64,000 bases of DNA from Candidatus Aphodoplasma sp. (GTDB lineage Bacteria; Bacillota; Clostridia; UBA1381; UMGS1253): contig JAZNVH010000025.1 in assembly GCA_045592745.1 (NCBI GenBank), positions 130,152-194,151 of the forward strand, read 5' to 3'. The first letter of the stretch is position 1, and the number at the start of each line of letters is the position of its first letter. Under the pieces are notes generated by a model. The model was given only the letters and a program-made list of their open reading frames with translations. It made no database searches and was not told the DNA's origin. The translations under genes were made by a program, and so were the position numbers. Below, piece after piece: positions 1,989 to 59,384 of the stretch.

Positions 1989-4025
1989 TTATAAAAGTAT
2001 CCTGTCTGTAAGCAAAGAAATCTTTTTTTCAAGGGCATTAGTTTCTTCATTTGTCAAATGAAGAGTAGAATCAAAAAGCTCACTTACGGCTTTTTGTACC
2101 TCTTTTAATATATCCATATCATTAAATAAGTTTGCAATTCGCATAGTGGGCAGTCCATGCTGTTTTGTGCCAAAAAAATCACCCGGTCCACGAAGCCTTA
2201 AATCCTGCTCGGAAATATAAAAGCCGTCGTTTGAACTACACATTATCTGCATACGCTTTTTTGCAATTTCACCTTCACCTTGATTAAAAAGTATGCAATA
2301 GCTTTGCTCAGCACCACGTCCGACGCGCCCACGAAGCTGATGAAGCTGACTTACACCAAAACGCTCTGCGTTTTCCACTATCATAACATTTGCGTTGGCA
2401 ACATCGACACCGACTTCAATAACGGTTGTAGATATTAAAATGTCTATTTCTCCTGCTTTAAAATGGGTCATGATGTTTTCTTTTTCATCGCTTTTTAGCT
2501 TTCCGTGTAAAAGAGCGCAGCGAAATTCGGGGAATATTTTAGTTCGAAGCATATCTGCATAGTCAATAACATTTTTTAAATCGCTGTTTTCGGTTTCTTC
2601 AATTAAAGGACAAACTATGTATATTTGTCTGCCATTTAAAACGTGTTTTTTTATAAATGCAAATATACGCTCACGCATTTTTTCGTCTACACAATACGTA
2701 AGAACATTTTTTCTGCCCGGTGGCAGCTCATCAATAATCGAAATGTCAAGGTCGCCGTATAAGATAAGCGCCAGCGTACGTGGTATTGGTGTTGCACTCA
2801 TTACAAGCACGTGCGGATTATCACCTTTTTGAGCGATGCTGTCACGGTGAATAACGCCAAAACGGTGCTGTTCGTCGGTGATAACAAGCGCAAGTGATTT
2901 ATAAATTACGCCTTCTTGTATCATAGCGTGAGTACCGATTATAATGTCGGCATATCCACTTTTTATATCCTCATATGCTTGTCGTTTTTCTTTTGCACTC
3001 ATAGAACCAACAAGCAGACATACGTTTATGGTGTGACAATCCATCATCTTTTTAAAGTTTTCATAATGTTGCTTTGCCAAAACTTCAGTTGGCACCATAA
3101 GTGCTGACTGATATCCACTTTTTGCGCAGGCGTACATTGCTGCTGCGGCAACTACTGTTTTTCCAGAGCCTACATCACCTTGAACAAGCCTGTTCATTGA
3201 TACACTGCGTGATAAATCGTCGCAAATTTCATCTATAACCTTTTTTTGTGCGTTTGTAAGCGAAAAGGGAAGAGAATCAACAAATTCTTTCGTGTATGAT
3301 GTATCAATATGCGCTTTTTGCAAGGTATTCGTCTTTGATGTCTTTATTTTTGAAAGCGCCAAAGAAAGCGTTAACAATTCATCAAATACAAGGCGTCTTC
3401 GTGCTCGTGAATAACTATCAAAATCACTTGGAAAATGAATTGTACGAACAGCCTCATCAAATCCAAGCAAATTATACTTTTCTATCAAAGAGCGGGGGAG
3501 TGTTTCTTTAAAAGATGGGCACATTTCAAGTGCTGACGCAATCGCTTTTTGCACCGTTTTTTGCGCAAGATCAGCCGTAAGAGGATAAATAGGAACAATT
3601 TTGCCCGTTACAAGCTGTTTTGTATCGATTTTTTCAAAAATAGGGTTTTCAATAAACTTTTTTGATCCCATTTTTTTGATTTTTCCGTAAAAAGTATAAG
3701 AATCTCCCTTTACGATACTATTTTTTATATATTTATTGTTAAACCATGTCGCAGTAATTTTGCCACTTTCATCAACCAAATCTACATTATAAAGGGAAAG
3801 AGACTTGTTTATTCTGCGTTCAGAAACAGCCGAAAAAACGGTGGCTTTTATGCACACCGTTTCGGAATCGTTTGCTTCAAATATAGGAACAATTTTTGTT
3901 CTGTCTTCGTAATCGCGCGGGAAATATAAAAGTAAATCGGCAACGTTGTATATACCCAAACGTGCAAATAATTTTGCTCTTGCATTACCAATGCCCGATA
4001 GCGCGCTGACAGGTTTGTTTAACAT
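1989..4025 (-). CDS. recG: ATP-dependent DNA helicase RecG
   Basis: Wedge domain plus SF2 helicase motifs (GDVGSGKT, DEQHRFG, QLHQLRGRVGRG). I prefer the ATG at 4025 (AAGGA RBS 9 nt upstream) over the track's TTG at 4034. Confidence 0.93.
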   Translation of the reverse strand: MLNKPVSALSGIGNARAKLFARLGIYNVADLLLYFPRDYEDRTKIVPIFEANDSETVCIKATVFSAVSERRINKSLSLYNVDLVDESGKITATWFNNKYIKNSIVKGDSYTFYGKIKKMGSKKFIENPIFEKIDTKQLVTGKIVPIYPLTADLAQKTVQKAIASALEMCPSFKETLPRSLIEKYNLLGFDEAVRTIHFPSDFDSYSRARRRLVFDELLTLSLALSKIKTSKTNTLQKAHIDTSYTKEFVDSLPFSLTNAQKKVIDEICDDLSRSVSMNRLVQGDVGSGKTVVAAAAMYACAKSGYQSALMVPTEVLAKQHYENFKKMMDCHTINVCLLVGSMSAKEKRQAYEDIKSGYADIIIGTHAMIQEGVIYKSLALVITDEQHRFGVIHRDSIAQKGDNPHVLVMSATPIPRTLALILYGDLDISIIDELPPGRKNVLTYCVDEKMRERIFAFIKKHVLNGRQIYIVCPLIEETENSDLKNVIDYADMLRTKIFPEFRCALLHGKLKSDEKENIMTHFKAGEIDILISTTVIEVGVDVANANVMIVENAERFGVSQLHQLRGRVGRGAEQSYCILFNQGEGEIAKKRMQIMCSSNDGFYISEQDLRLRGPGDFFGTKQHGLPTMRIANLFNDMDILKEVQKAVSELFDSTLHLTNEETNALEKKISLLTDRILL

Positions 4026-51576: not shown

Positions 51577-53091
51577 TTATAGTCTTTTTTCTTCCTCTTC
51601 CTGAACATCGGCAAATGCAGAAAGCATCGGTTTGATATCCTTGTGTTTTAGATTTCTGTCTATGTAGTTTCTTGTAATCTTGACAACAAGTCCCGAAAGT
51701 GCAAGAACACCAATAAGGTTAGGTACCATCATGAGTCCGTTGAATGTATCGGAAATATCCCATGCAAGCGACGATGTCAAAAGCGCACCGCACATAATCA
51801 TCACAAGGTGGATAACCTTGTAAAGCTTTGTTGACTTTGTGCCAAACAAATATTCCCACGCTTTGCTTCCGTAATGGTCCCATCCAAGAACTGTTGTAAA
51901 TGCAAACAATAAAATTGCAATTGCAATAAATCTTTCGCCCCATACACCAAACAAAATCGAAAAGGCTTTTGCAACAAGATTTGCATCAGTTGCGCCCTGC
52001 ATAAGTGCACCTGTTTCAAGATTGATTACGCCGGATGTAAGTACAACAAGAGCGGTCATTGTGCAAACAACCATTGTATCGGCAAATACTTCAAAAATGC
52101 CCCAAAGACCCTGACGTACAGGCTCTACAACATTTGAGTTTGAATGAACCATAACCGATGAACCAAGACCTGCCTCATTTGAGAAAACACCTCTCTTACA
52201 TCCGAGAGTTACAATTTCTTTTACGGCAATACCAGCAGCACCGCCCCATACTGCCGGGCCTGTAAATGCATACTTAAAGATTGATGCAAACGCAGCTCCG
52301 ACAGAAGCATAATTTACACCAATTATAATAAGACTTCCCAAAACAAATAACACTACCATAAAAGGAACAACTTTCTCAGCAAAATTTGCAATTCTCTTGA
52401 GTCCACCAAGAATAATAAGCGCCGCAATAACTACGAGCACAATGCCTATAATAAGATGGTACATTGTTACGTTTCCAAAAGGAATCGCTGCAAGTGACGG
52501 AATCTGAAATGCATCTACCATATTAACAACAATTTTATTAATCTGACCCATTGCACCGATACCAAATGATGCGAGAATTGCAAAAATTGAGAAAAGCACT
52601 GCAAGAATTGCACCAATCCATTTACAACCTTTAATTTTGCCAAGACCATCTCTTAAATAGTACATAGCGCCGCCTGACCACTCACCGTCTGCATTCTTTC
52701 TTCTGTAATAGATACCAAGAACGTTTTCTGAGTAGTTTGTCATCATACCAAGAAATGCCGCAACCCACATCCAGAAGACTGCACCGGGACCACCGCCTAC
52801 AATCGCAGCTGCAACACCGGCAATATTACCTACACCTATTGTAGCTGCAAGAGCAGTACAAAGCGCCTGAAACTGCGATATTGACTTGCCCTTAACATGT
52901 CCTGAAACATCCTTGTTGAAAATCTTTCCAATTGTTTCAGAGAACCAGTGTCCTATATGTGTTATCTGGAAAACACCTGTGATAACAGTCATTATAAGAC
53001 CCGTTGCCAAGAGCAGATAAAGACCCTTGCCCCACACAAAACTGTTGACATTGTTATTAAAATTTGTCAACACCTCAAAAAAGTTTGCCAT
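51577..53091 (-). CDS. Alanine/glycine:cation symporter (AGCS family)
   Basis: 'FQALCTALAATIGVGNIAGVA.AI..GGPGA.FWMW' AGCS signature. The ATG at 53091 follows GAGGAGG. Confidence 0.92.
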   Translation of the reverse strand: MANFFEVLTNFNNNVNSFVWGKGLYLLLATGLIMTVITGVFQITHIGHWFSETIGKIFNKDVSGHVKGKSISQFQALCTALAATIGVGNIAGVAAAIVGGGPGAVFWMWVAAFLGMMTNYSENVLGIYYRRKNADGEWSGGAMYYLRDGLGKIKGCKWIGAILAVLFSIFAILASFGIGAMGQINKIVVNMVDAFQIPSLAAIPFGNVTMYHLIIGIVLVVIAALIILGGLKRIANFAEKVVPFMVVLFVLGSLIIIGVNYASVGAAFASIFKYAFTGPAVWGGAAGIAVKEIVTLGCKRGVFSNEAGLGSSVMVHSNSNVVEPVRQGLWGIFEVFADTMVVCTMTALVVLTSGVINLETGALMQGATDANLVAKAFSILFGVWGERFIAIAILLFAFTTVLGWDHYGSKAWEYLFGTKSTKLYKVIHLVMIMCGALLTSSLAWDISDTFNGLMMVPNLIGVLALSGLVVKITRNYIDRNLKHKDIKPMLSAFADVQEEEEKRL

Positions 53092-53119
53092 ATTATTTCC
53101 TCCTCTTTTTTGCGCTAAA

Positions 53120-53340
53120 TAAAGCAAAAACGGAGTTTTTGAAATACAAAAACTCCGCGCAAAAAAAGCATCTATAACTTTTTTCTCCGTCCTTTTGCCT
53201 GAGAGATTAACCCTTTTGGGTCTTACACCTTCGGCATCCTTTTATATTGGGACTTCTCCGGAGTGCTATCTGTGAACAGTCATCACCATCGCGCCTGAGA
53301 GCTTTACTCCTTCGGCAAGGCTTACACCTTTCTCCTGCAC
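53120..53340 (-). promoter_or_regulatory. Tandem glycine riboswitch with terminator expression platform
   Basis: Minus-strand aptamer 1 is GCAGGAGAAAGG..GCCGAAGGAGUAA..CUCUCAGGCG. Aptamer 2 is CUCCGGAGAAG..UGCCGAAGGUGUAA..AAUCUCUCAGGCAAAAGGACGGAG (aptamers about 53181-53340). The terminator is CGGAGUUUUUG-uauuuc-AAAAACUCCG (53131-57) followed by UUUUUGC. Confidence 0.85.
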
Positions 53341-53372
53341 ACTTCACTTAGCTCAAATATTAAGTTATAATA

Positions 53373-53401
53373 ATTATACGCCTATTTTGTCGAATTGTCA
53401 A
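53373..53401 (-). promoter_or_regulatory. Exact-consensus SigA promoter driving the glycine riboswitch
   Basis: Minus strand TTGACA (53401-396), 17-nt spacer, TATAAT (53378-73). Confidence 0.7.
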
Positions 53402-53423: not shown

Positions 53424-53984
53424 TTACAAATTATATCCCAGTTCAAACGCCTTAAGGTTTGACTCCATAAACTTTTCAGGTGTTGATGTCTTAATCGTAT
53501 TAACCCACTTTTCATAAGGAATATCAGTATTTTTTGCCATAAGACCAATTAATACGACATTAACAGCTTTAACATTGCCTGCCTCTTTTGCATATTTAAG
53601 TGCATCAACTGTAACAACATCAATCTTTTCCGAAAGCTTTTCCTCGATATTTTCAGGATACTTCATCGCACCTGTAATTACAGGCATCGGGTCAATCTGC
53701 TGGGTATTTACAAGCATTTTTCCACCTTTTTTAAGATACGGAAGCGCTCTGTACGCCTCAAGCTTTTCAAATGCAAGAATTATATCAGCTTCACCGCGGT
53801 CGATTATCGGAGAATAAACCTTTTTTCCAAACTTAACGTATGTAACAACGCTGCCGCCTCTCTGGCTCATGCCATGAACCTCAGAAACCTTTACATCATA
53901 GCCTTCGTTTACAACTGTGTTGCCGAGTATACGGCTTGCAAGCAAGGTTCCCTGACCGCCTACGCCTACTATCATTATATTCAT
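53424..53984 (-). CDS. iorB: Indolepyruvate:ferredoxin oxidoreductase, beta subunit
   Basis: 'IMIVGVGGQGTLLASR', 'VHGMSQRGGSV'. Its size and its position 3 nt after iorA fit. Confidence 0.9.
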   Translation of the reverse strand: MNIMIVGVGGQGTLLASRILGNTVVNEGYDVKVSEVHGMSQRGGSVVTYVKFGKKVYSPIIDRGEADIILAFEKLEAYRALPYLKKGGKMLVNTQQIDPMPVITGAMKYPENIEEKLSEKIDVVTVDALKYAKEAGNVKAVNVVLIGLMAKNTDIPYEKWVNTIKTSTPEKFMESNLKAFELGYNL

Positions 53985-53987
53985 AGC

Positions 53988-55721
53988 TTACTCCCCCTTC
54001 TCCATTGCACCAAACGGACAAACATTAAAGCAAAGTCCGCAACCGTTGCACTGTGTCTCGTCAATAACTATCTTCTCTCCGTCAAACGAGATTGCAGGAC
54101 ATCCAAGCTTTAAGCAAAGCTTACACTTTTTGCAGTTATCGTTTATCTTACACTTGCCTGTGTACTTAACAGACTTTAATAGTGCACAAGGTCTTTGAGC
54201 AATAATTACTGAAGGCTCGTCACGCTCTGTTTCCTCTTTAACAACCTTTTCAAAATTCTTTACATCAAACGGGTCAGCTACAACAACATTTTTAACACCG
54301 ATTGACTTACAGAGGTCAACAAGATTAACCTGGGTGGTTTCTTCGCCTCTTATGGTGTATCCCGTTGTAGGATTGTTCTGATGTCCCGTCATGCCTGTAA
54401 TAGAGTTGTCAAGAATAATAACTGTATTTGCGCCCTTATTATACACTATATCAACAAGACCCGTGATACCTGAATGCATAAATGTCGAATCACCTATAAC
54501 AGAAACAAGCTTTTTGTTAAACTCTGCGCCTCTTGCCTTCGCCATGCCATGAGCAGCACTTACAGAAGCACCCATACATATCGTTGTATCAACGCTTTCA
54601 AGTGGAGCAACCGCTCCAAGAGTATAACAACCGATATCGCCCGACACTGTAAGACCGAGCTTTTTAAGAACATAAAATGTTCCTCTGTGAGGACAGCCTG
54701 CGCACATAACGGGCGGTCTAACGGGGATAATCTCGTCAATTTTTGCGCTTTCCGGTGCGCCTTCTCCTAATACTGCCGCTTTTATCATAGAAGGAGTATA
54801 CTCGCCAAGCAAAGTAAACTTTTCTTTGCCAATAACATCAATACCGATTGCACGGCAATGCTTTTCTATAACAGGGTCAAGCTCCTCTATTACATAAACC
54901 TTATCACACTTTGCAGCAAAATCTTTTATAAGCTTCTCAGGCAAAGGATAAACCATACCGAGCTTTAAGTAATTAACCTTGTCGCCAAGCGCTTCTTTTG
55001 CATACATATATGCAATACCCGATGTAATCACGCCGATTTTGCTGCCGTTATCTTCTACTATGTTAAACTCGCAATTTTCAGCATACTCTTTTAGTGCCGC
55101 AATGCGTTCTTCAACTACAACGTGTCTTTTTATCGCCTTTGCAGGCATCATAACATATTTATCTATATTCTTCTCGTACGGTTTAAGCTGTGTTTTTTCA
55201 GGCTCAAGATCTTCTACAAGGCTCTGTGAATGTGATACTCTTGTAGAAAGACGGATAAATACAGGCGTATCAAACTTTTCGCTCAGCTCAAACGCCGCCT
55301 TTGTATACTCCTTACACTCCGCTGAATCCGCAGGCTCAAGCATAGTAATCTTTGATGCCTCTGCATAGTGGCGCGAATCCTGCTCATTCTGTGATGAGTG
55401 CATTCCGGGGTCATCTGCCACGCAGAAAACAAGTCCGCCATTTACGCCTGTATAACTGACAGTAAAAACAGGGTCAGCCATAACATTCAAACCTACATGC
55501 TTCATACAGGACATACTTCTTGCACCTGCGATTGATGCACCGATTGCAACCTCTGCTGCAACTTTTTCATTTGGTGACCATTCTGCATAAACCTCTTCAT
55601 ATTTAACAATATTCTCGGTAATTTCGGTGCTTGGAGTACCCGGATAAGAAGCAACAACCGAAACACCTGCCTCATAAGCACCACGGGCAACCGCCGCATT
55701 GCCGAGCATAAGCTTCTTCAT
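53988..55721 (-). CDS. iorA: Indolepyruvate:ferredoxin oxidoreductase, alpha subunit
   Basis: 'GN.A.ARGA.EAG...ASYPGTPSTE', TPP-binding 'GDSTF.HSG' and a C-terminal 2x[4Fe-4S] ('CKKCKLC..LGCPA', 'CNGCGLCFNVCP'). Confidence 0.92.
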   Translation of the reverse strand: MKKLMLGNAAVARGAYEAGVSVVASYPGTPSTEITENIVKYEEVYAEWSPNEKVAAEVAIGASIAGARSMSCMKHVGLNVMADPVFTVSYTGVNGGLVFCVADDPGMHSSQNEQDSRHYAEASKITMLEPADSAECKEYTKAAFELSEKFDTPVFIRLSTRVSHSQSLVEDLEPEKTQLKPYEKNIDKYVMMPAKAIKRHVVVEERIAALKEYAENCEFNIVEDNGSKIGVITSGIAYMYAKEALGDKVNYLKLGMVYPLPEKLIKDFAAKCDKVYVIEELDPVIEKHCRAIGIDVIGKEKFTLLGEYTPSMIKAAVLGEGAPESAKIDEIIPVRPPVMCAGCPHRGTFYVLKKLGLTVSGDIGCYTLGAVAPLESVDTTICMGASVSAAHGMAKARGAEFNKKLVSVIGDSTFMHSGITGLVDIVYNKGANTVIILDNSITGMTGHQNNPTTGYTIRGEETTQVNLVDLCKSIGVKNVVVADPFDVKNFEKVVKEETERDEPSVIIAQRPCALLKSVKYTGKCKINDNCKKCKLCLKLGCPAISFDGEKIVIDETQCNGCGLCFNVCPFGAMEKGE

Positions 55722-55816
55722 TTTAAATCATCCCTTCCTTATTTGCGCAAATGATATCAGCTCAAAATCTGACATACTAAGTATAGCAAATCTTGAGCTG
55801 TTTTTCAACAGTTTAG

Positions 55817-57451
55817 TTAATTTTTTATCTGTGATTCGACAAGACTCTCACCACAATAAATCTCACGAAGCTTCGGCTTTTCAATTTTACCGGTAGGATT
55901 ACGAGGAACGTCTGCAAATATAACCTTGTGAGGTCTTTTATATCTTGGTAAATCAAGGCAAAAATCATTTACCTCTTCTTCTGTCATTTCGCAGTCCTCT
56001 TTTACCTCAATAACAGCTGCAGTAATTTCGCCAAGTCTTTTATCCGGCAAACCGATAACAGCTACGTCCTTTATTTTTGAGCAGCTGCGTAAAAAGTCCT
56101 CAATCTGTACAGGATAGATATTCTCTCCTCCCGATATGATTACGTCCTTCTTTCTGTCAACAAGATAGATAAAGCCATCTTCATCCTCTCTTGCCATATC
56201 ACCCGTAAAGAGCCATCCGTCATCCAAGACCTCTGCAGTTGCTTTTTCATCATTAAAATAGCACTCCATTACTCCGTCGCCTTTAACTGCAAGCTCACCT
56301 ACATCACCTTTTTTAACCGTGTTACGATACTCGTCAACAATCTTGACCTCCCAGCCATAACCTGCTTTTCCTATTGCACCAACCTTGTGAATATTTTCAA
56401 CACCAAGATGCACACAACCTGGGCCTATAGACTCACTAAGACCATAGTTTGTATCATAAGCATGATTTGGAAAACGCTGTTTCCAACGTTTGATAAGGCT
56501 TGGTGGAACAGGCTGCGCTCCAATATGCATAAGTCTCCATTGCTCAAGCTCATAATCTTCAATTTTGATTTCCCCACGGTCTATCGCATCAAGAATATCC
56601 TGTGCCCACGGAACCAAAAGCCATACAATTGTGCACTTTTCTTCCGAAATGGTTCTTATAATCCATTCCGGCTTTACACCCTTTAACAAAACTGCCTTGC
56701 TACCCGAAATAAGACTTCCAAACCAATGCATTTTTGCACCTGTATGATAAAGTGGCGGAATACACAAAAACACATCGTCACGGCTTTGACCATGATGATT
56801 TTGCTCAACACGGCATGAATGTATAAGGCTTCTGTGCTTATGCACAATAGCTTTTGGAAATCCCGTAGTTCCGGAAGAAAAATAAATCGCCGCATCATCA
56901 TCTTCTGCAAGAGGAATTTCTGGACATCTCGCAGTGCAATATGTAACAAGCTTATCATAGCTTTCAGCAAATGTAGGGCAATCCTCGCCAAGATAGAAGG
57001 TATATCGTACATTCTTCATCTTGTTTTCAACTGCTTCAACTCTGCCAGTAAATTCAGGCCCGAATATCAGCACATCTGCCTGTGCAAGATTAACGCAGTA
57101 CGCAATTTCGTCAGCAGTATAACGATAGTTAAGTGGAACAGCCATTGCACCCGCCTTTAATATTCCAAAATAAATTGGAAGCCATTCAAGACAATTCATA
57201 AGCAGTATGGCAACCTTGTCACCCTTTTTTATGCCACGACTAAGCAACAGATTTGCAAATCTGTTTGCCTTTTTATCAAATTCACTCCATGTTATCTGTG
57301 TGCGAAATGCTTCTTTGTTACTTGTTTCAATAAGGGCATATTCCTTCCATGTAAGACGTTTTCCCTCGCCCATCGGCGGATTAATCTCAACAAGGCTAAC
57401 CTCGTCTGCGTACAATCTCGCGTTTTTTTCAAGCAATTCTGTAATTACCAT
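55817..57451 (-). CDS. ANL-superfamily acyl-CoA ligase (AMP-binding)
   Basis: 'YFSSGTTGFPKA' (A3), 'YGLSE', 'TGD' and 'GENIYP'. 544 aa. Acyl substrate unknown. Confidence 0.9.
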   Translation of the reverse strand: MVITELLEKNARLYADEVSLVEINPPMGEGKRLTWKEYALIETSNKEAFRTQITWSEFDKKANRFANLLLSRGIKKGDKVAILLMNCLEWLPIYFGILKAGAMAVPLNYRYTADEIAYCVNLAQADVLIFGPEFTGRVEAVENKMKNVRYTFYLGEDCPTFAESYDKLVTYCTARCPEIPLAEDDDAAIYFSSGTTGFPKAIVHKHRSLIHSCRVEQNHHGQSRDDVFLCIPPLYHTGAKMHWFGSLISGSKAVLLKGVKPEWIIRTISEEKCTIVWLLVPWAQDILDAIDRGEIKIEDYELEQWRLMHIGAQPVPPSLIKRWKQRFPNHAYDTNYGLSESIGPGCVHLGVENIHKVGAIGKAGYGWEVKIVDEYRNTVKKGDVGELAVKGDGVMECYFNDEKATAEVLDDGWLFTGDMAREDEDGFIYLVDRKKDVIISGGENIYPVQIEDFLRSCSKIKDVAVIGLPDKRLGEITAAVIEVKEDCEMTEEEVNDFCLDLPRYKRPHKVIFADVPRNPTGKIEKPKLREIYCGESLVESQIKN

Positions 57452-57475
57452 CTTATCTCACCTTTATTTTATATT

Positions 57476-59020
57476 TTAAGCACCAAGGCTTTCCTTTTTA
57501 TTTACGCTTACCTTTTCTTCATAACATGCAAATGCACCATCTACAAACTCACTATCAGGCTTCTTTGTAAATATGCTTACCACCGGAACAATCACAAGTC
57601 CTGCAAGCATTGCAATAACACCGCAATTAATTGGTGATTGCATAATAGTCGGGAACGAGCTTCTGAAAAGCATATTCAAAACCATTATACCCGCTCCAAA
57701 GATAAAACTTGCCCACACTGATGCCTTTGTTGCTTTCTTAGAATACAAGCCATACAAGAACGGAGCAAGAAATGCACCCGCAAGTGCCCCCCATGATATG
57801 CCCATCATATCAGCAATCGCACTGAGCTTATCTTTGTTAAGTGCAATGTATGCAGATATCGCAATAAACACCACAATTAACACTCTCATAATGAGAACCT
57901 GCTTTTTCTCACTCATATCCTTAACAATATGATTTTTAATCATATCGATTGTAAGAGTCGAACTTGATGCAAGTACCAATGATGAAAGCGTTGACATTGA
58001 TGCTGAAAGCACTAAAACAATAACAACCGCAATTAAAATATCCGGCAGTCCCGAAAGCATAGTCGGAATAATCGCATCAAATCCGCCTACTATTGAGCCG
58101 TCTGCAAGAAAGCTTAGCTTGTCTGTAAAGAGTCTGCCAAAGCCTCCTAAAAAGTAACATCCGCCTGCAACCACTACTGCAAACAATGTAGAAATAACTG
58201 TACCCTTTTGGATATCCTTCTCATTTTTGATTGCATAAAATTTTTGAACCATTTGCGGAAGACCCCATGTTCCAAGTGATGTTAAAACAACCACAAATCC
58301 AAGTCCCAATGGGTCAGGGCCAAAGAACGAATTAAATGCTCCCGGTGCATTCCCTGCTACTTCAATTTGTGCAAGTCCATTAAGTGCCTCCATAAATCCA
58401 CCGTTGCTTACAAGCACAGCCGCAATTACTGCAACGATACCGATAAGCATAATAATTCCCTGGATAAAATCATTTATCGCAGTTGCCATATAGCCACCTG
58501 CAGTTACATATATACCCGTAAGTATCGCCATTATAATAACACATGTTGAATAGCTGACTCCCGGAAATGCCATCTCAAACAATCTCGAAAGACCGTTATA
58601 AAGCGAAGCTGTGTATGGGATAAGAAAAATAAACACAAGAACAGATGCCGCTATTTTAAGAGCATCGCTTTTAAATCTCTTACCAAAAAATTCAGGCATC
58701 GTTGCACTATCTAAATGCTGACTCATAAGTCTTGTTCTTCTGCCAAGAACAATCCACGCCAGCAAAGAACCGAGCACAGCATTGCCGATACCAATCCATG
58801 TAGATGCAATTCCGAATTTCCATCCGAACTGACCTGCATATCCAACAAAGATAACTGCCGAAAAATACGACGTTCCATAAGCAAACGCTGTAAGCCACGG
58901 CCCAACACTTCTGCCGCCGAGGACAAACCCGTTCACATCCGTTGCGTGCTTGCGACATAATATGCCGACAAAAATCATCACCGCAAAGAATACCACCAAC
59001 AAACCAATTTTTACTACCAT
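57476..59020 (-). CDS. Sodium:solute symporter (SSS) family transporter
   Basis: About 13 TM. 'GGRSVGPWLTAFAYGTSYFSAVIFVGYAG' is an SSS N-terminal signature. The ATG at 59020 is preferred because the track's upstream extension runs through the T-box terminator. Confidence 0.9.
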   Translation of the reverse strand: MVVKIGLLVVFFAVMIFVGILCRKHATDVNGFVLGGRSVGPWLTAFAYGTSYFSAVIFVGYAGQFGWKFGIASTWIGIGNAVLGSLLAWIVLGRRTRLMSQHLDSATMPEFFGKRFKSDALKIAASVLVFIFLIPYTASLYNGLSRLFEMAFPGVSYSTCVIIMAILTGIYVTAGGYMATAINDFIQGIIMLIGIVAVIAAVLVSNGGFMEALNGLAQIEVAGNAPGAFNSFFGPDPLGLGFVVVLTSLGTWGLPQMVQKFYAIKNEKDIQKGTVISTLFAVVVAGGCYFLGGFGRLFTDKLSFLADGSIVGGFDAIIPTMLSGLPDILIAVVIVLVLSASMSTLSSLVLASSSTLTIDMIKNHIVKDMSEKKQVLIMRVLIVVFIAISAYIALNKDKLSAIADMMGISWGALAGAFLAPFLYGLYSKKATKASVWASFIFGAGIMVLNMLFRSSFPTIMQSPINCGVIAMLAGLVIVPVVSIFTKKPDSEFVDGAFACYEEKVSVNKKESLGA

Positions 59021-59050
59021 TTTTACATCTACCCTTTCTTTTGAGGGCAT

Positions 59051-59349
59051 AAAAAACGCCCTCATAATAATATGAGGGCGAAAATCTCGCGGTACCACCT
59101 CATTTTACCGCACTCTCACGGGCGCGGCCTTTACGAGTACTGCCTTCGGGTGACAGCTATACAGCTAGGCGTATACTCTCTTGCTGTAACGGGCAATCCC
59201 GTCGCAGCCTACTGAGATAAAAATCCGTTCGGTGCGCAGCTCGCGAAATGTATTCAGATATTCCCGATTTACTGTCTCGCAGCAACCGACAGCTCTCTTA
59301 AAACCTAAAGAATACCCTACTTGTTTTCGGTCATAGCCTTTAAATGTTA
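59051..59349 (-). promoter_or_regulatory. T-box leader, specifier UAC (Tyr)
   Basis: Minus strand has a K-turn (AUGA/GA), AGUA box, AGAGAG bulge plus distal loop, specifier loop GAA-UAC-A (UAC at 59252-59250), F-box CCGUUA and T-box AAAUGAGGUGGUACCGCGAG (59105-59086). The terminator is CGCCCUCAU-auuauu-AUGAGGGCG (59080-59057) followed by UUUUUU. Confidence 0.88.
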
Positions 59350-59355
59350 CTTAAA

Positions 59356-59384
59356 ATTATATTATTTATAAGTCACTTTGTCAA
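59356..59384 (-). promoter_or_regulatory. Exact-consensus SigA promoter driving the T-box leader
   Basis: Minus strand TTGACA (59384-79), 17-nt spacer, TATAAT (59361-56). Confidence 0.7.

Follow-up and report, generated by a model that had tools for sequence, protein, structure and literature searches.

The question raised by this locus is why a T-box leader specific for tyrosine should stand in front of genes for a sodium/solute symporter of the SSS family, an AMP-forming acyl-CoA ligase and the two subunits of indolepyruvate:ferredoxin oxidoreductase (IOR), iorA and iorB. The locus lies on the reverse strand of a 64,000-nucleotide stretch of contig JAZNVH010000025.1 from Candidatus Aphodoplasma sp.; this whole stretch is called the window here. 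A T-box turns genes on when its cognate tRNA is uncharged. Thus, a tyrosine T-box ahead of a predicted importer, an AMP-forming ligase and IOR makes sense only as a device for tyrosine supply, and we consider it moderately likely that the window encodes an operon by which this gut or rumen anaerobe salvages tyrosine from an exogenous arylacetate, the fermentation by-product 4-hydroxyphenylacetate. The promoter, the T-box with its specifier, the gene families and a linkage conserved across species are shown below, whereas we infer which substrate is used, in which direction IOR runs and how far the genes are co-transcribed.

The leader RNA is what ties the operon to tyrosine. As the original prediction had claimed, the promoter is an exact consensus (Table 1); it lies 13 nt upstream of the T-box leader, and its -35 and -10 hexamers can be aligned across all 19 related leaders. 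A covariance search with RF00230 gave 122.3 bits against a gathering score of 93 (E=1.3e-26) over model positions 1-219, untruncated, which bears out the proposed T-box at full length. The K-turn region, the specifier loop, the AGAGA and distal-loop motifs and the T-box 14-mer with UGGU are present, and an alignment of 19 sequences (window and related loci) has compensatory changes at 15 of the 17 pairs of Stem I. The specifier loop GAA-UAC-A sits directly 5' of the basal-helix strand UUUCG, which pairs with CGAAA, and in the Rfam alignment the loop consensus GAA-a-uuc-a is matched to GAA-UAC-A, with UAC on the codon positions of the model. Because of this alignment, and because the basal helix begins right after GAAUACA, the specifier is read as UAC plus the usual purine. 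The tyrosine specifier first proposed was thus recovered by both the Rfam alignment and the 19-sequence Stem I fold, and neither gives a codon other than Tyr. The reading rule was controlled on a T-box in one of the related loci (L028, 3926-4240), which reads AAC (Asn) and stands ahead of asnS, a class II aminoacyl-tRNA synthetase gene, and asnA; it lies just 5' of an orthologue of the ligase, to which it is unrelated. Downstream in the window leader, a hairpin (59080-59057) followed by TTTTTT forms a terminator that excludes the antiterminator: CGCCCUCA is common to both, the 5' strand of the terminator overlapping the 3' strand of the antiterminator. No tRNA genes were found within the window. 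A response to uncharged tRNA-Tyr is predicted for the leader.

The families of the four co-directional genes were confirmed by Pfam and NCBIfam, and the gaps of 24 nt (symporter-ligase), 95 nt (ligase-iorA) and 3 nt (iorA-iorB) given for them are exact. Both IOR subunits score above equivalog cutoffs, IorA with TIGR03336 (742.9 against 650.9 bits; Pfam domains POR_N, TPP_enzyme_C and Fer4) and IorB with NF005325 (291.1 against 230 bits; PF01558, a POR gamma-like domain). The symporter belongs to the SSS family (PF00474, 190.1 bits against a gathering score of 22.8). Its likeliest start is the ATG at 59020, which is preceded by GAAAGGG; the resulting 514 aa match the homologues in length. An alternative in-frame ATG lies at 59050. 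The ligase carries PF00501 (258.7 bits) and PF13193 (42.9 bits), which places it in the ANL superfamily.

Table 1. Positions of the operon features in the window, listed in the direction of transcription, and gene orders of the loci with a tyrosine T-box
Feature	Position or loci	Strand	Basis or remark
Sigma-70 promoter TTGACA-17-TATAAT	59356..59384	-	12/12 against consensus
T-box leader RNA (Stem I, Stem III, antiterminator)	59071..59343	-	Rfam RF00230 match
Specifier codon UAC (Tyr)	59250..59252	-	followed by conserved purine A at 59249
T-box core GGTGGTACCGCG (bulge binding the tRNA acceptor end, UGGU)	59088..59099	-	sequence
Leader intrinsic terminator, 10-bp stem CGCCCTCATA/TATGAGGGCG + T6	59051..59080	-	terminator scan, sequence
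SSS-family Na+/solute symporter	57476..59020	-	PF00474, E=8e-56
544-aa ANL (AMP-forming) acyl-CoA ligase, no named subfamily	55817..57451	-	PF00501 and PF13193
Promoter-like TTGAAA-17-TATACT with TG (extended -10)	55780..55808	-	10/12; overlaps the hairpin
Imperfect 19-bp hairpin in the ligase-iorA gap, then AUAUCAUUU	55758..55800	-	fold of the gap
IorA, indolepyruvate:ferredoxin oxidoreductase alpha (TPP and 2x[4Fe-4S] domains)	53988..55721	-	TIGR03336
IorB, IOR beta subunit	53424..53984	-	NF005325, PF01558
T-box-SSS-ligase-IorAB(-PaaK-ACT)	window, L001, L003, L004, L018, L027, L030, L012/L013		contigs of L012/L013 end inside iorA
T-box-ligase-IorAB-..., transporter-free	L006, L036, L051, L060, L075		
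T-box-SSS-ligase or T-box-ligase-SSS, no adjacent IorAB	L031, L053, L067, L078		

The same arrangement recurs in other genomes. A scan for the ligase in one genome per species gave 80 loci (ligase identity 72-89%), most of them from the rumen or gut, in Acutalibacteraceae, Oscillospiraceae, Ruminococcus flavefaciens, R. albus and Lachnospiraceae. Open reading frames (ORFs) were called and clustered in these loci, and an nhmmer model based on the leader sequences served to map T-boxes. A T-box stood 5' of the ligase, or of the symporter and the ligase, in 18 further loci, and the specifier was UAC in every one of these and in the window (19/19); 12 of the 13 T-box loci tested passed the Rfam gathering score. 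IorA lay directly 3' of the ligase in 13 of these 18 T-box loci and, among the 62 loci whose downstream sequence reached at least 2.5 kb, in 30. The arrangement of tyrosine T-box, ligase and iorAB originally claimed for the window thus recurs well beyond it. The gap between ligase and iorA was 3-25 nt in 10 T-box loci, and adjacency at 3-36 nt was frequent among the ligase loci. Where there was room, 19 of 28 ligase-IorAB loci went on to a PaaK-type ligase (AMP-binding and AMP-binding_C_2) and an ACT-pair protein. Five T-box loci have ligase and IorAB with no transporter, which indicates that ligase and IOR are themselves direct tyrosine-regulated targets. Across the T-box loci, the ligase is thus the constant tyrosine-regulated gene and IorAB its usual partner.

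A second sample was drawn from metagenomes and comprised 80 loci centred on a PaaK homologue; PaaK and ACT formed a near-obligate pair in it, and IorAB lay upstream in about 30 loci. No T-box of any specifier, Phe and Trp included, preceded IorAB or PaaK in these loci, and the Phe and Trp versions of the gene set that had been suggested were therefore not borne out there. The null is not just a failure of sensitivity, since the same nhmmer model caught T-boxes of other specificity elsewhere, an Asn T-box in L028 and a Leu-like one in L056. Absence of a T-box from IorAB-PaaK ties T-box control to the 544-aa ligase and to tyrosine. In L102, L109, L113 and L126, a second PaaK paralogue holds the position 5' of iorA (PaaK'-IorA-IorB-PaaK-ACT) that the 544-aa ligase holds in the window, and in L081 the order is SSS-ligase-IorAB-PaaK-ACT. 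The paired PaaK paralogues suggest that several arylacetate-specific entry ligases would feed one IOR. PaaK-type ligases may serve phenylacetate and possibly indoleacetate, with the 544-aa ligase as the putative entry point specific for 4-hydroxyphenylacetate; such a role would explain why a tyrosine T-box is found on that ligase alone. In L104 (4460-4656), the symporter and iorA are separated by a promoter-like site and a short leader (about 110 nt) with a terminator at its end; the terminator is T-box-like, Stem I is absent, and the leader could be a T-box remnant or another attenuator.

Several observations weigh against the salvage reading, and we take them in turn with the alternatives on which they bear. 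About three quarters of the ligase loci lack a T-box, and in many ligase loci IorAB is not close by. Relaxed nhmmer and regular-expression searches revealed no hidden T-boxes in the roughly 60 nhmmer-negative ligase loci, most of which have upstream gaps too short for a T-box, and Rfam returned neither a T-box nor any other cis-regulatory RNA in 10 nhmmer-negative loci with symporter and ligase. In the ligase tree, loci with and without a T-box are intermixed inside the clade linked to the symporter and IorAB. Also, the aminotransferase is not encoded here, and no PaaK or ACT genes were found in the window.

The family of the ligase is a further difficulty, as the proteins of known structure closest to it are FadD13, FadD5, feruloyl-CoA synthetase and 4-coumarate-CoA ligases (4CL), with ACSM2A also among the solved homologues. 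It is not of the PaaK type: it has 544 aa and an AMP-binding_C domain, against about 430-440 aa and AMP-binding_C_2 in PaaK-type enzymes, and the PaaK-type genes of the related loci do carry AMP-binding_C_2. No named NCBIfam ligase subfamily (long-chain FadD, MenE and others) reached its cutoff, the best being PRK06187 (422 against 476 bits). Orthologues at 72-100% identity are common in Oscillospirales, Ruminococcus and Lachnospiraceae; identity is at least 78% among the best 120 cluster representatives, and the few named ones are from Oscillospiraceae, Ruminococcaceae or metagenome-assembled genomes of Clostridia. Arylacetate-accepting enzymes of the FadD/4CL/ACSM type are known, among them a fungal phenylacetyl-CoA ligase of the 4CL type and the mammalian ACSM enzymes. 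The window ligase shares the fold and length class of these non-PaaK arylacetate ligases, a likeness at the level of the family only.

It could be argued that the ligase activates another acid, such as 3-(4-hydroxyphenyl)propionate, p-coumarate, 4-hydroxyphenyllactate or arylacetates generally, with a looser link to IOR. This would fit the feruloyl-CoA synthetase and 4-coumarate-CoA ligases among its sequence neighbours, and also the solitary orthologues, with no IorAB nearby, in Ruminococcus flavefaciens, R. albus and Lachnospiraceae. However, only an arylacetyl-CoA yields the tyrosine precursor through the adjacent IOR, close ligase-IorA adjacency is frequent, a paralogue of the PaaK family takes the same position in other genomes, and the T-boxes are exclusively of the Tyr type. 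We therefore regard another substrate as unlikely, and favour a predicted 4-hydroxyphenylacetate-CoA ligase.

The symporter was originally linked to monocarboxylate permeases through its family, and this part of the argument is weak. All NCBIfam profiles fell below cutoff; the closest were PutP (205 against 515 bits) and PanF (163 against 328 bits), and the acetate/monocarboxylate branch scored far lower (MctC, 53 against 670; ActP, 35-39 against at least 750 bits). The likeness to the proline symporter PutP would suit a different reading, in which the symporter imports tyrosine or another amino acid and the ligase and IorAB have a separate function on the same transcript; amino-acid transporters are indeed typical of T-box regulons (PMC2494555). 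The gene neighbourhood points elsewhere. A symporter homologue adjoins the ligase in 27 of the 80 ligase loci, including loci without a T-box, and five T-box operons keep ligase and IorAB without the symporter. Homologues at 57-71% identity occur in six PaaK-centred clusters, and two more at about 39% in L126 and L142. They stand directly 5' of the PaaK paralogue in L102 and L113 and upstream of the first PaaK paralogue in L126, and thus beside IorAB-PaaK-ACT clusters. These positions favour an arylacetate importer over a tyrosine importer, and we hold the latter, together with a separate role for ligase and IorAB, to be quite unlikely. The importer reading is supported by the neighbourhood and not by family membership, and on that footing the symporter is a predicted arylacetate (4-hydroxyphenylacetate) importer.

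Whether all four genes share one transcript is the remaining point. The symporter-ligase and iorA-iorB gaps are so short that there is no room for signals in them. The original prediction saw no convincing terminator between the genes, and a terminator scan indeed calls none in the ligase-iorA gap, but this gap does hold a strong hairpin and a promoter-like site. Its fold has -27.8 kcal/mol against -16.1 +/- 3.0 for shuffled sequences (z=-3.9), and the U-tract 3' of the 19-bp hairpin is poor (AUAUCAUUU); the hairpin is possibly a weak terminator or a transcript-stabilising element. The promoter-like site is a candidate internal promoter for iorAB, although shuffled sequence yields such sites at least as often as this AT-rich DNA does. 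L001, the closest genome relative (ligase 89% identical), has a canonical terminator, AAAGCCGATAATTCTGCGCGGAATTATCGGCTTTTTTT, in the equivalent gap (L001 4526-4653), and 3' of it TTGAAA-17-TATTAT with TGT, then iorAB-paaK. As this gap reads, iorAB is uncoupled from the T-box in L001, and iorAB has probably acquired its own promoter in the lineage of L001 and the window. With these signals in the two genomes, a single four-gene transcript is not secure in the window.

The same pathway could thus be under split regulation in the window. The T-box would control the symporter and the ligase only, the hairpin (55800-55758) would stop most transcripts, and iorAB, driven by an extended -10 promoter of its own, would serve as a shared arylpyruvate synthase/oxidoreductase. 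We regard this as possible rather than probable. The stability of the 19-bp hairpin, the site TTGAAA-17-TGnTATACT (55808-55780) and the gap of L001, with its clear terminator and TTGAAA-17-TGnTATTAT promoter ahead of iorAB-paaK, are all in line with it, and T-box-SSS-ligase loci without adjacent IorAB do occur (L031, L053, L067 and L078). On the other hand, the U-tract is poor and the hairpin went uncalled in the terminator scan, promoter-like sites occur at chance frequency, and the gaps of 3-25 nt in ten other T-box loci leave no room for uncoupling. For many relatives, we infer strict co-transcription of iorAB with the ligase; in the window, read-through from the T-box into iorAB is likely, but may be partial.

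The salvage mechanism that we propose would begin with uncharged tRNA-Tyr, whose GUA anticodon would pair with the UAC specifier and whose free 3' end would stabilise the antiterminator, so that transcription from the consensus promoter would pass the leader terminator. The induced transcript would directly yield the Na+-coupled SSS importer and the 544-aa AMP-forming ligase, which together would import 4-hydroxyphenylacetate and activate it as 4-hydroxyphenylacetyl-CoA. IorAB, probably served in the window by T-box read-through plus its own promoter, would work in the synthase direction, in which 4-hydroxyphenylacetyl-CoA, CO2 and reduced ferredoxin give 4-hydroxyphenylpyruvate and CoA. An aminotransferase encoded elsewhere would then form tyrosine from 4-hydroxyphenylpyruvate. 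Through the IOR encoded next door, this carboxylation is the only way in which a CoA-activated carboxylic acid would lead to a tyrosine precursor.

A catabolic module, in which IOR oxidises arylpyruvates and the ligase serves in thioester turnover, would agree with the way in which IOR is usually annotated or discussed, namely as fermentative (e.g. PMC5817080). Yet induction by uncharged tRNA-Tyr would be counter-productive for tyrosine degradation, AMP-forming ligases drive activation and not ATP recovery, and a dedicated (predicted) acid importer precedes the ligase; we judge the catabolic explanation highly improbable. Taken together, the anabolic salvage module that the original prediction put forward keeps its footing in the uniform UAC specifiers, the linkage of the ligase to IorA and the symporters beside IorAB-PaaK, whereas its single four-gene transcript is not secure and its family argument for the symporter is weak.

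The proposed chemistry, from arylacetate through arylacetyl-CoA and arylpyruvate to the amino acid, is that of reductive carboxylation in rumen bacteria and methanogens. Such carboxylation in the rumen was reportedly described by Allison in 1965 and Kristensen in 1974, and Porat et al. are said to have reported in 2004 an IOR-dependent use of aryl acids in Methanococcus maripaludis. Members of the ligase family abound in Ruminococcus and in other Clostridia of the rumen and gut. Beyond what the classical descriptions are known to include, the module in the window has a dedicated (predicted) importer, a FadD/4CL-like and not a PaaK-type ligase, and an amino-acid-specific riboswitch. It shares its IorAB family with the iorA-iorB-paaK-ACT clusters of Clostridia but lacks their PaaK and ACT, and its upstream ligase is of another ANL subfamily (AMP-binding_C, not AMP-binding_C_2). 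It is well established for the rumen that phenylacetate and branched-chain acids are carboxylated to give amino acids (PMC7356843).

On the regulatory side, the window leader shares the full architecture of Tyr-class T-boxes of the Bacillus subtilis tyrS type (RF00230), including GAA-UAC-purine and the competing terminator and antiterminator, and differs in the genes controlled. Published Tyr regulons comprise tyrS, tyrT, aroA, tyrA and phhA; neither a ligase nor IOR is among them (PMC3766115, PMC2494555). A compendium based on RegPrecise gives only tyrS, tyrT, aroA and similar genes for Tyr T-boxes, Ruminococcaceae lying outside its coverage (PMC3766115), and nothing similar to a ligase-IOR regulon is mentioned by Wels et al. 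2008 (PMC2494555). Our literature search found no text pairing 'T-box' with 'indolepyruvate', no '4-hydroxyphenylacetate-CoA ligase' and no description of a Tyr T-box ligase-iorAB regulon, in agreement with the novelty first claimed for it, though an earlier passing mention is possible. Three elements appear undescribed: tyrosine T-box control of a ligase-iorAB module, a tentative role in arylacetate salvage for this ANL subfamily and this SSS clade, and regulatory evidence for an anabolic IOR in Firmicutes. The reductive-carboxylation chemistry and the T-box mechanism are already known, and no new mechanism is involved.

Some further features were seen around the operon and its relatives. No terminator was found 3' of iorB. 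Right after this gene, a separate unit on the same strand begins with a second perfect TTGACA-17-TATAAT promoter (53401-53373, 12/12); its leader (53130-53401) holds a glycine riboswitch aptamer (53271-53177, 55 bits) and a terminator (53158-53130), and its gene (51577-53127) encodes a member of the sodium:alanine symporter family. The segment 53340-53275 resembles a degenerate first glycine aptamer and has no Rfam score. Among the ligase loci, a gene of the Amidohydro_2 family (PF04909) adjoins the ligase in L027 (6208-6999), L030, L043 and L064, and in L027 and L030 it lies between symporter and ligase within the Tyr T-box operon. A predicted membrane protein of 170-225 aa with no Pfam match is encoded between iorB and paaK in L036 (11141-11656), L051, L071 and L075. 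The 576-aa and 179-aa genes that follow T-box-ligase-SSS in L078 were considered as a divergent IorAB and rejected, as they gave no tblastn match to IorA or IorB and are unlike them by eye. L056 has a second T-box (2772-3077), with specifier CUC (Leu) by the same reading rule, 5' of an ORF (3111 to about 5600) in which a xylose-isomerase-like TIM barrel is joined to an ANL ligase with 28% identity to that of the window; the product may be another T-box-gated acid-activating enzyme.

What the tyrosine specifier would add is a function for two unnamed families, as 4-hydroxyphenylacetate-CoA ligase and Na+/arylacetate symporter, together with a gut and rumen clade of Oscillospirales that induces IOR-dependent reductive carboxylation specifically on uncharged tRNA-Tyr. 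We put this broader claim forward tentatively, with confidence just short of even. IOR of gut Firmicutes is nearly always annotated as catabolic, and a starvation riboswitch before ligase-iorAB is genetic evidence for the biosynthetic direction. The operon also provides candidate genes, for importer, ligase and IOR, for the conversion of arylacetates to aromatic amino acids, a rumen physiology known for some 60 years. With the Leu T-box and ANL ligase of L056 as a further case, T-boxes may gate salvage from fermentation acid to amino acid in Clostridia more broadly, and T-box specifiers would be usable to annotate genes that encode neither transporters nor synthetases. If the reading is true, it would bear on genome-based prediction of auxotrophy in uncultured Oscillospirales and on the modelling of cross-feeding on tyrosine fermentation products such as 4-hydroxyphenylacetate, a precursor of p-cresol. 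The carriers of the operon would then be conditional tyrosine prototrophs, living on the waste of other microbes' tyrosine fermentation.

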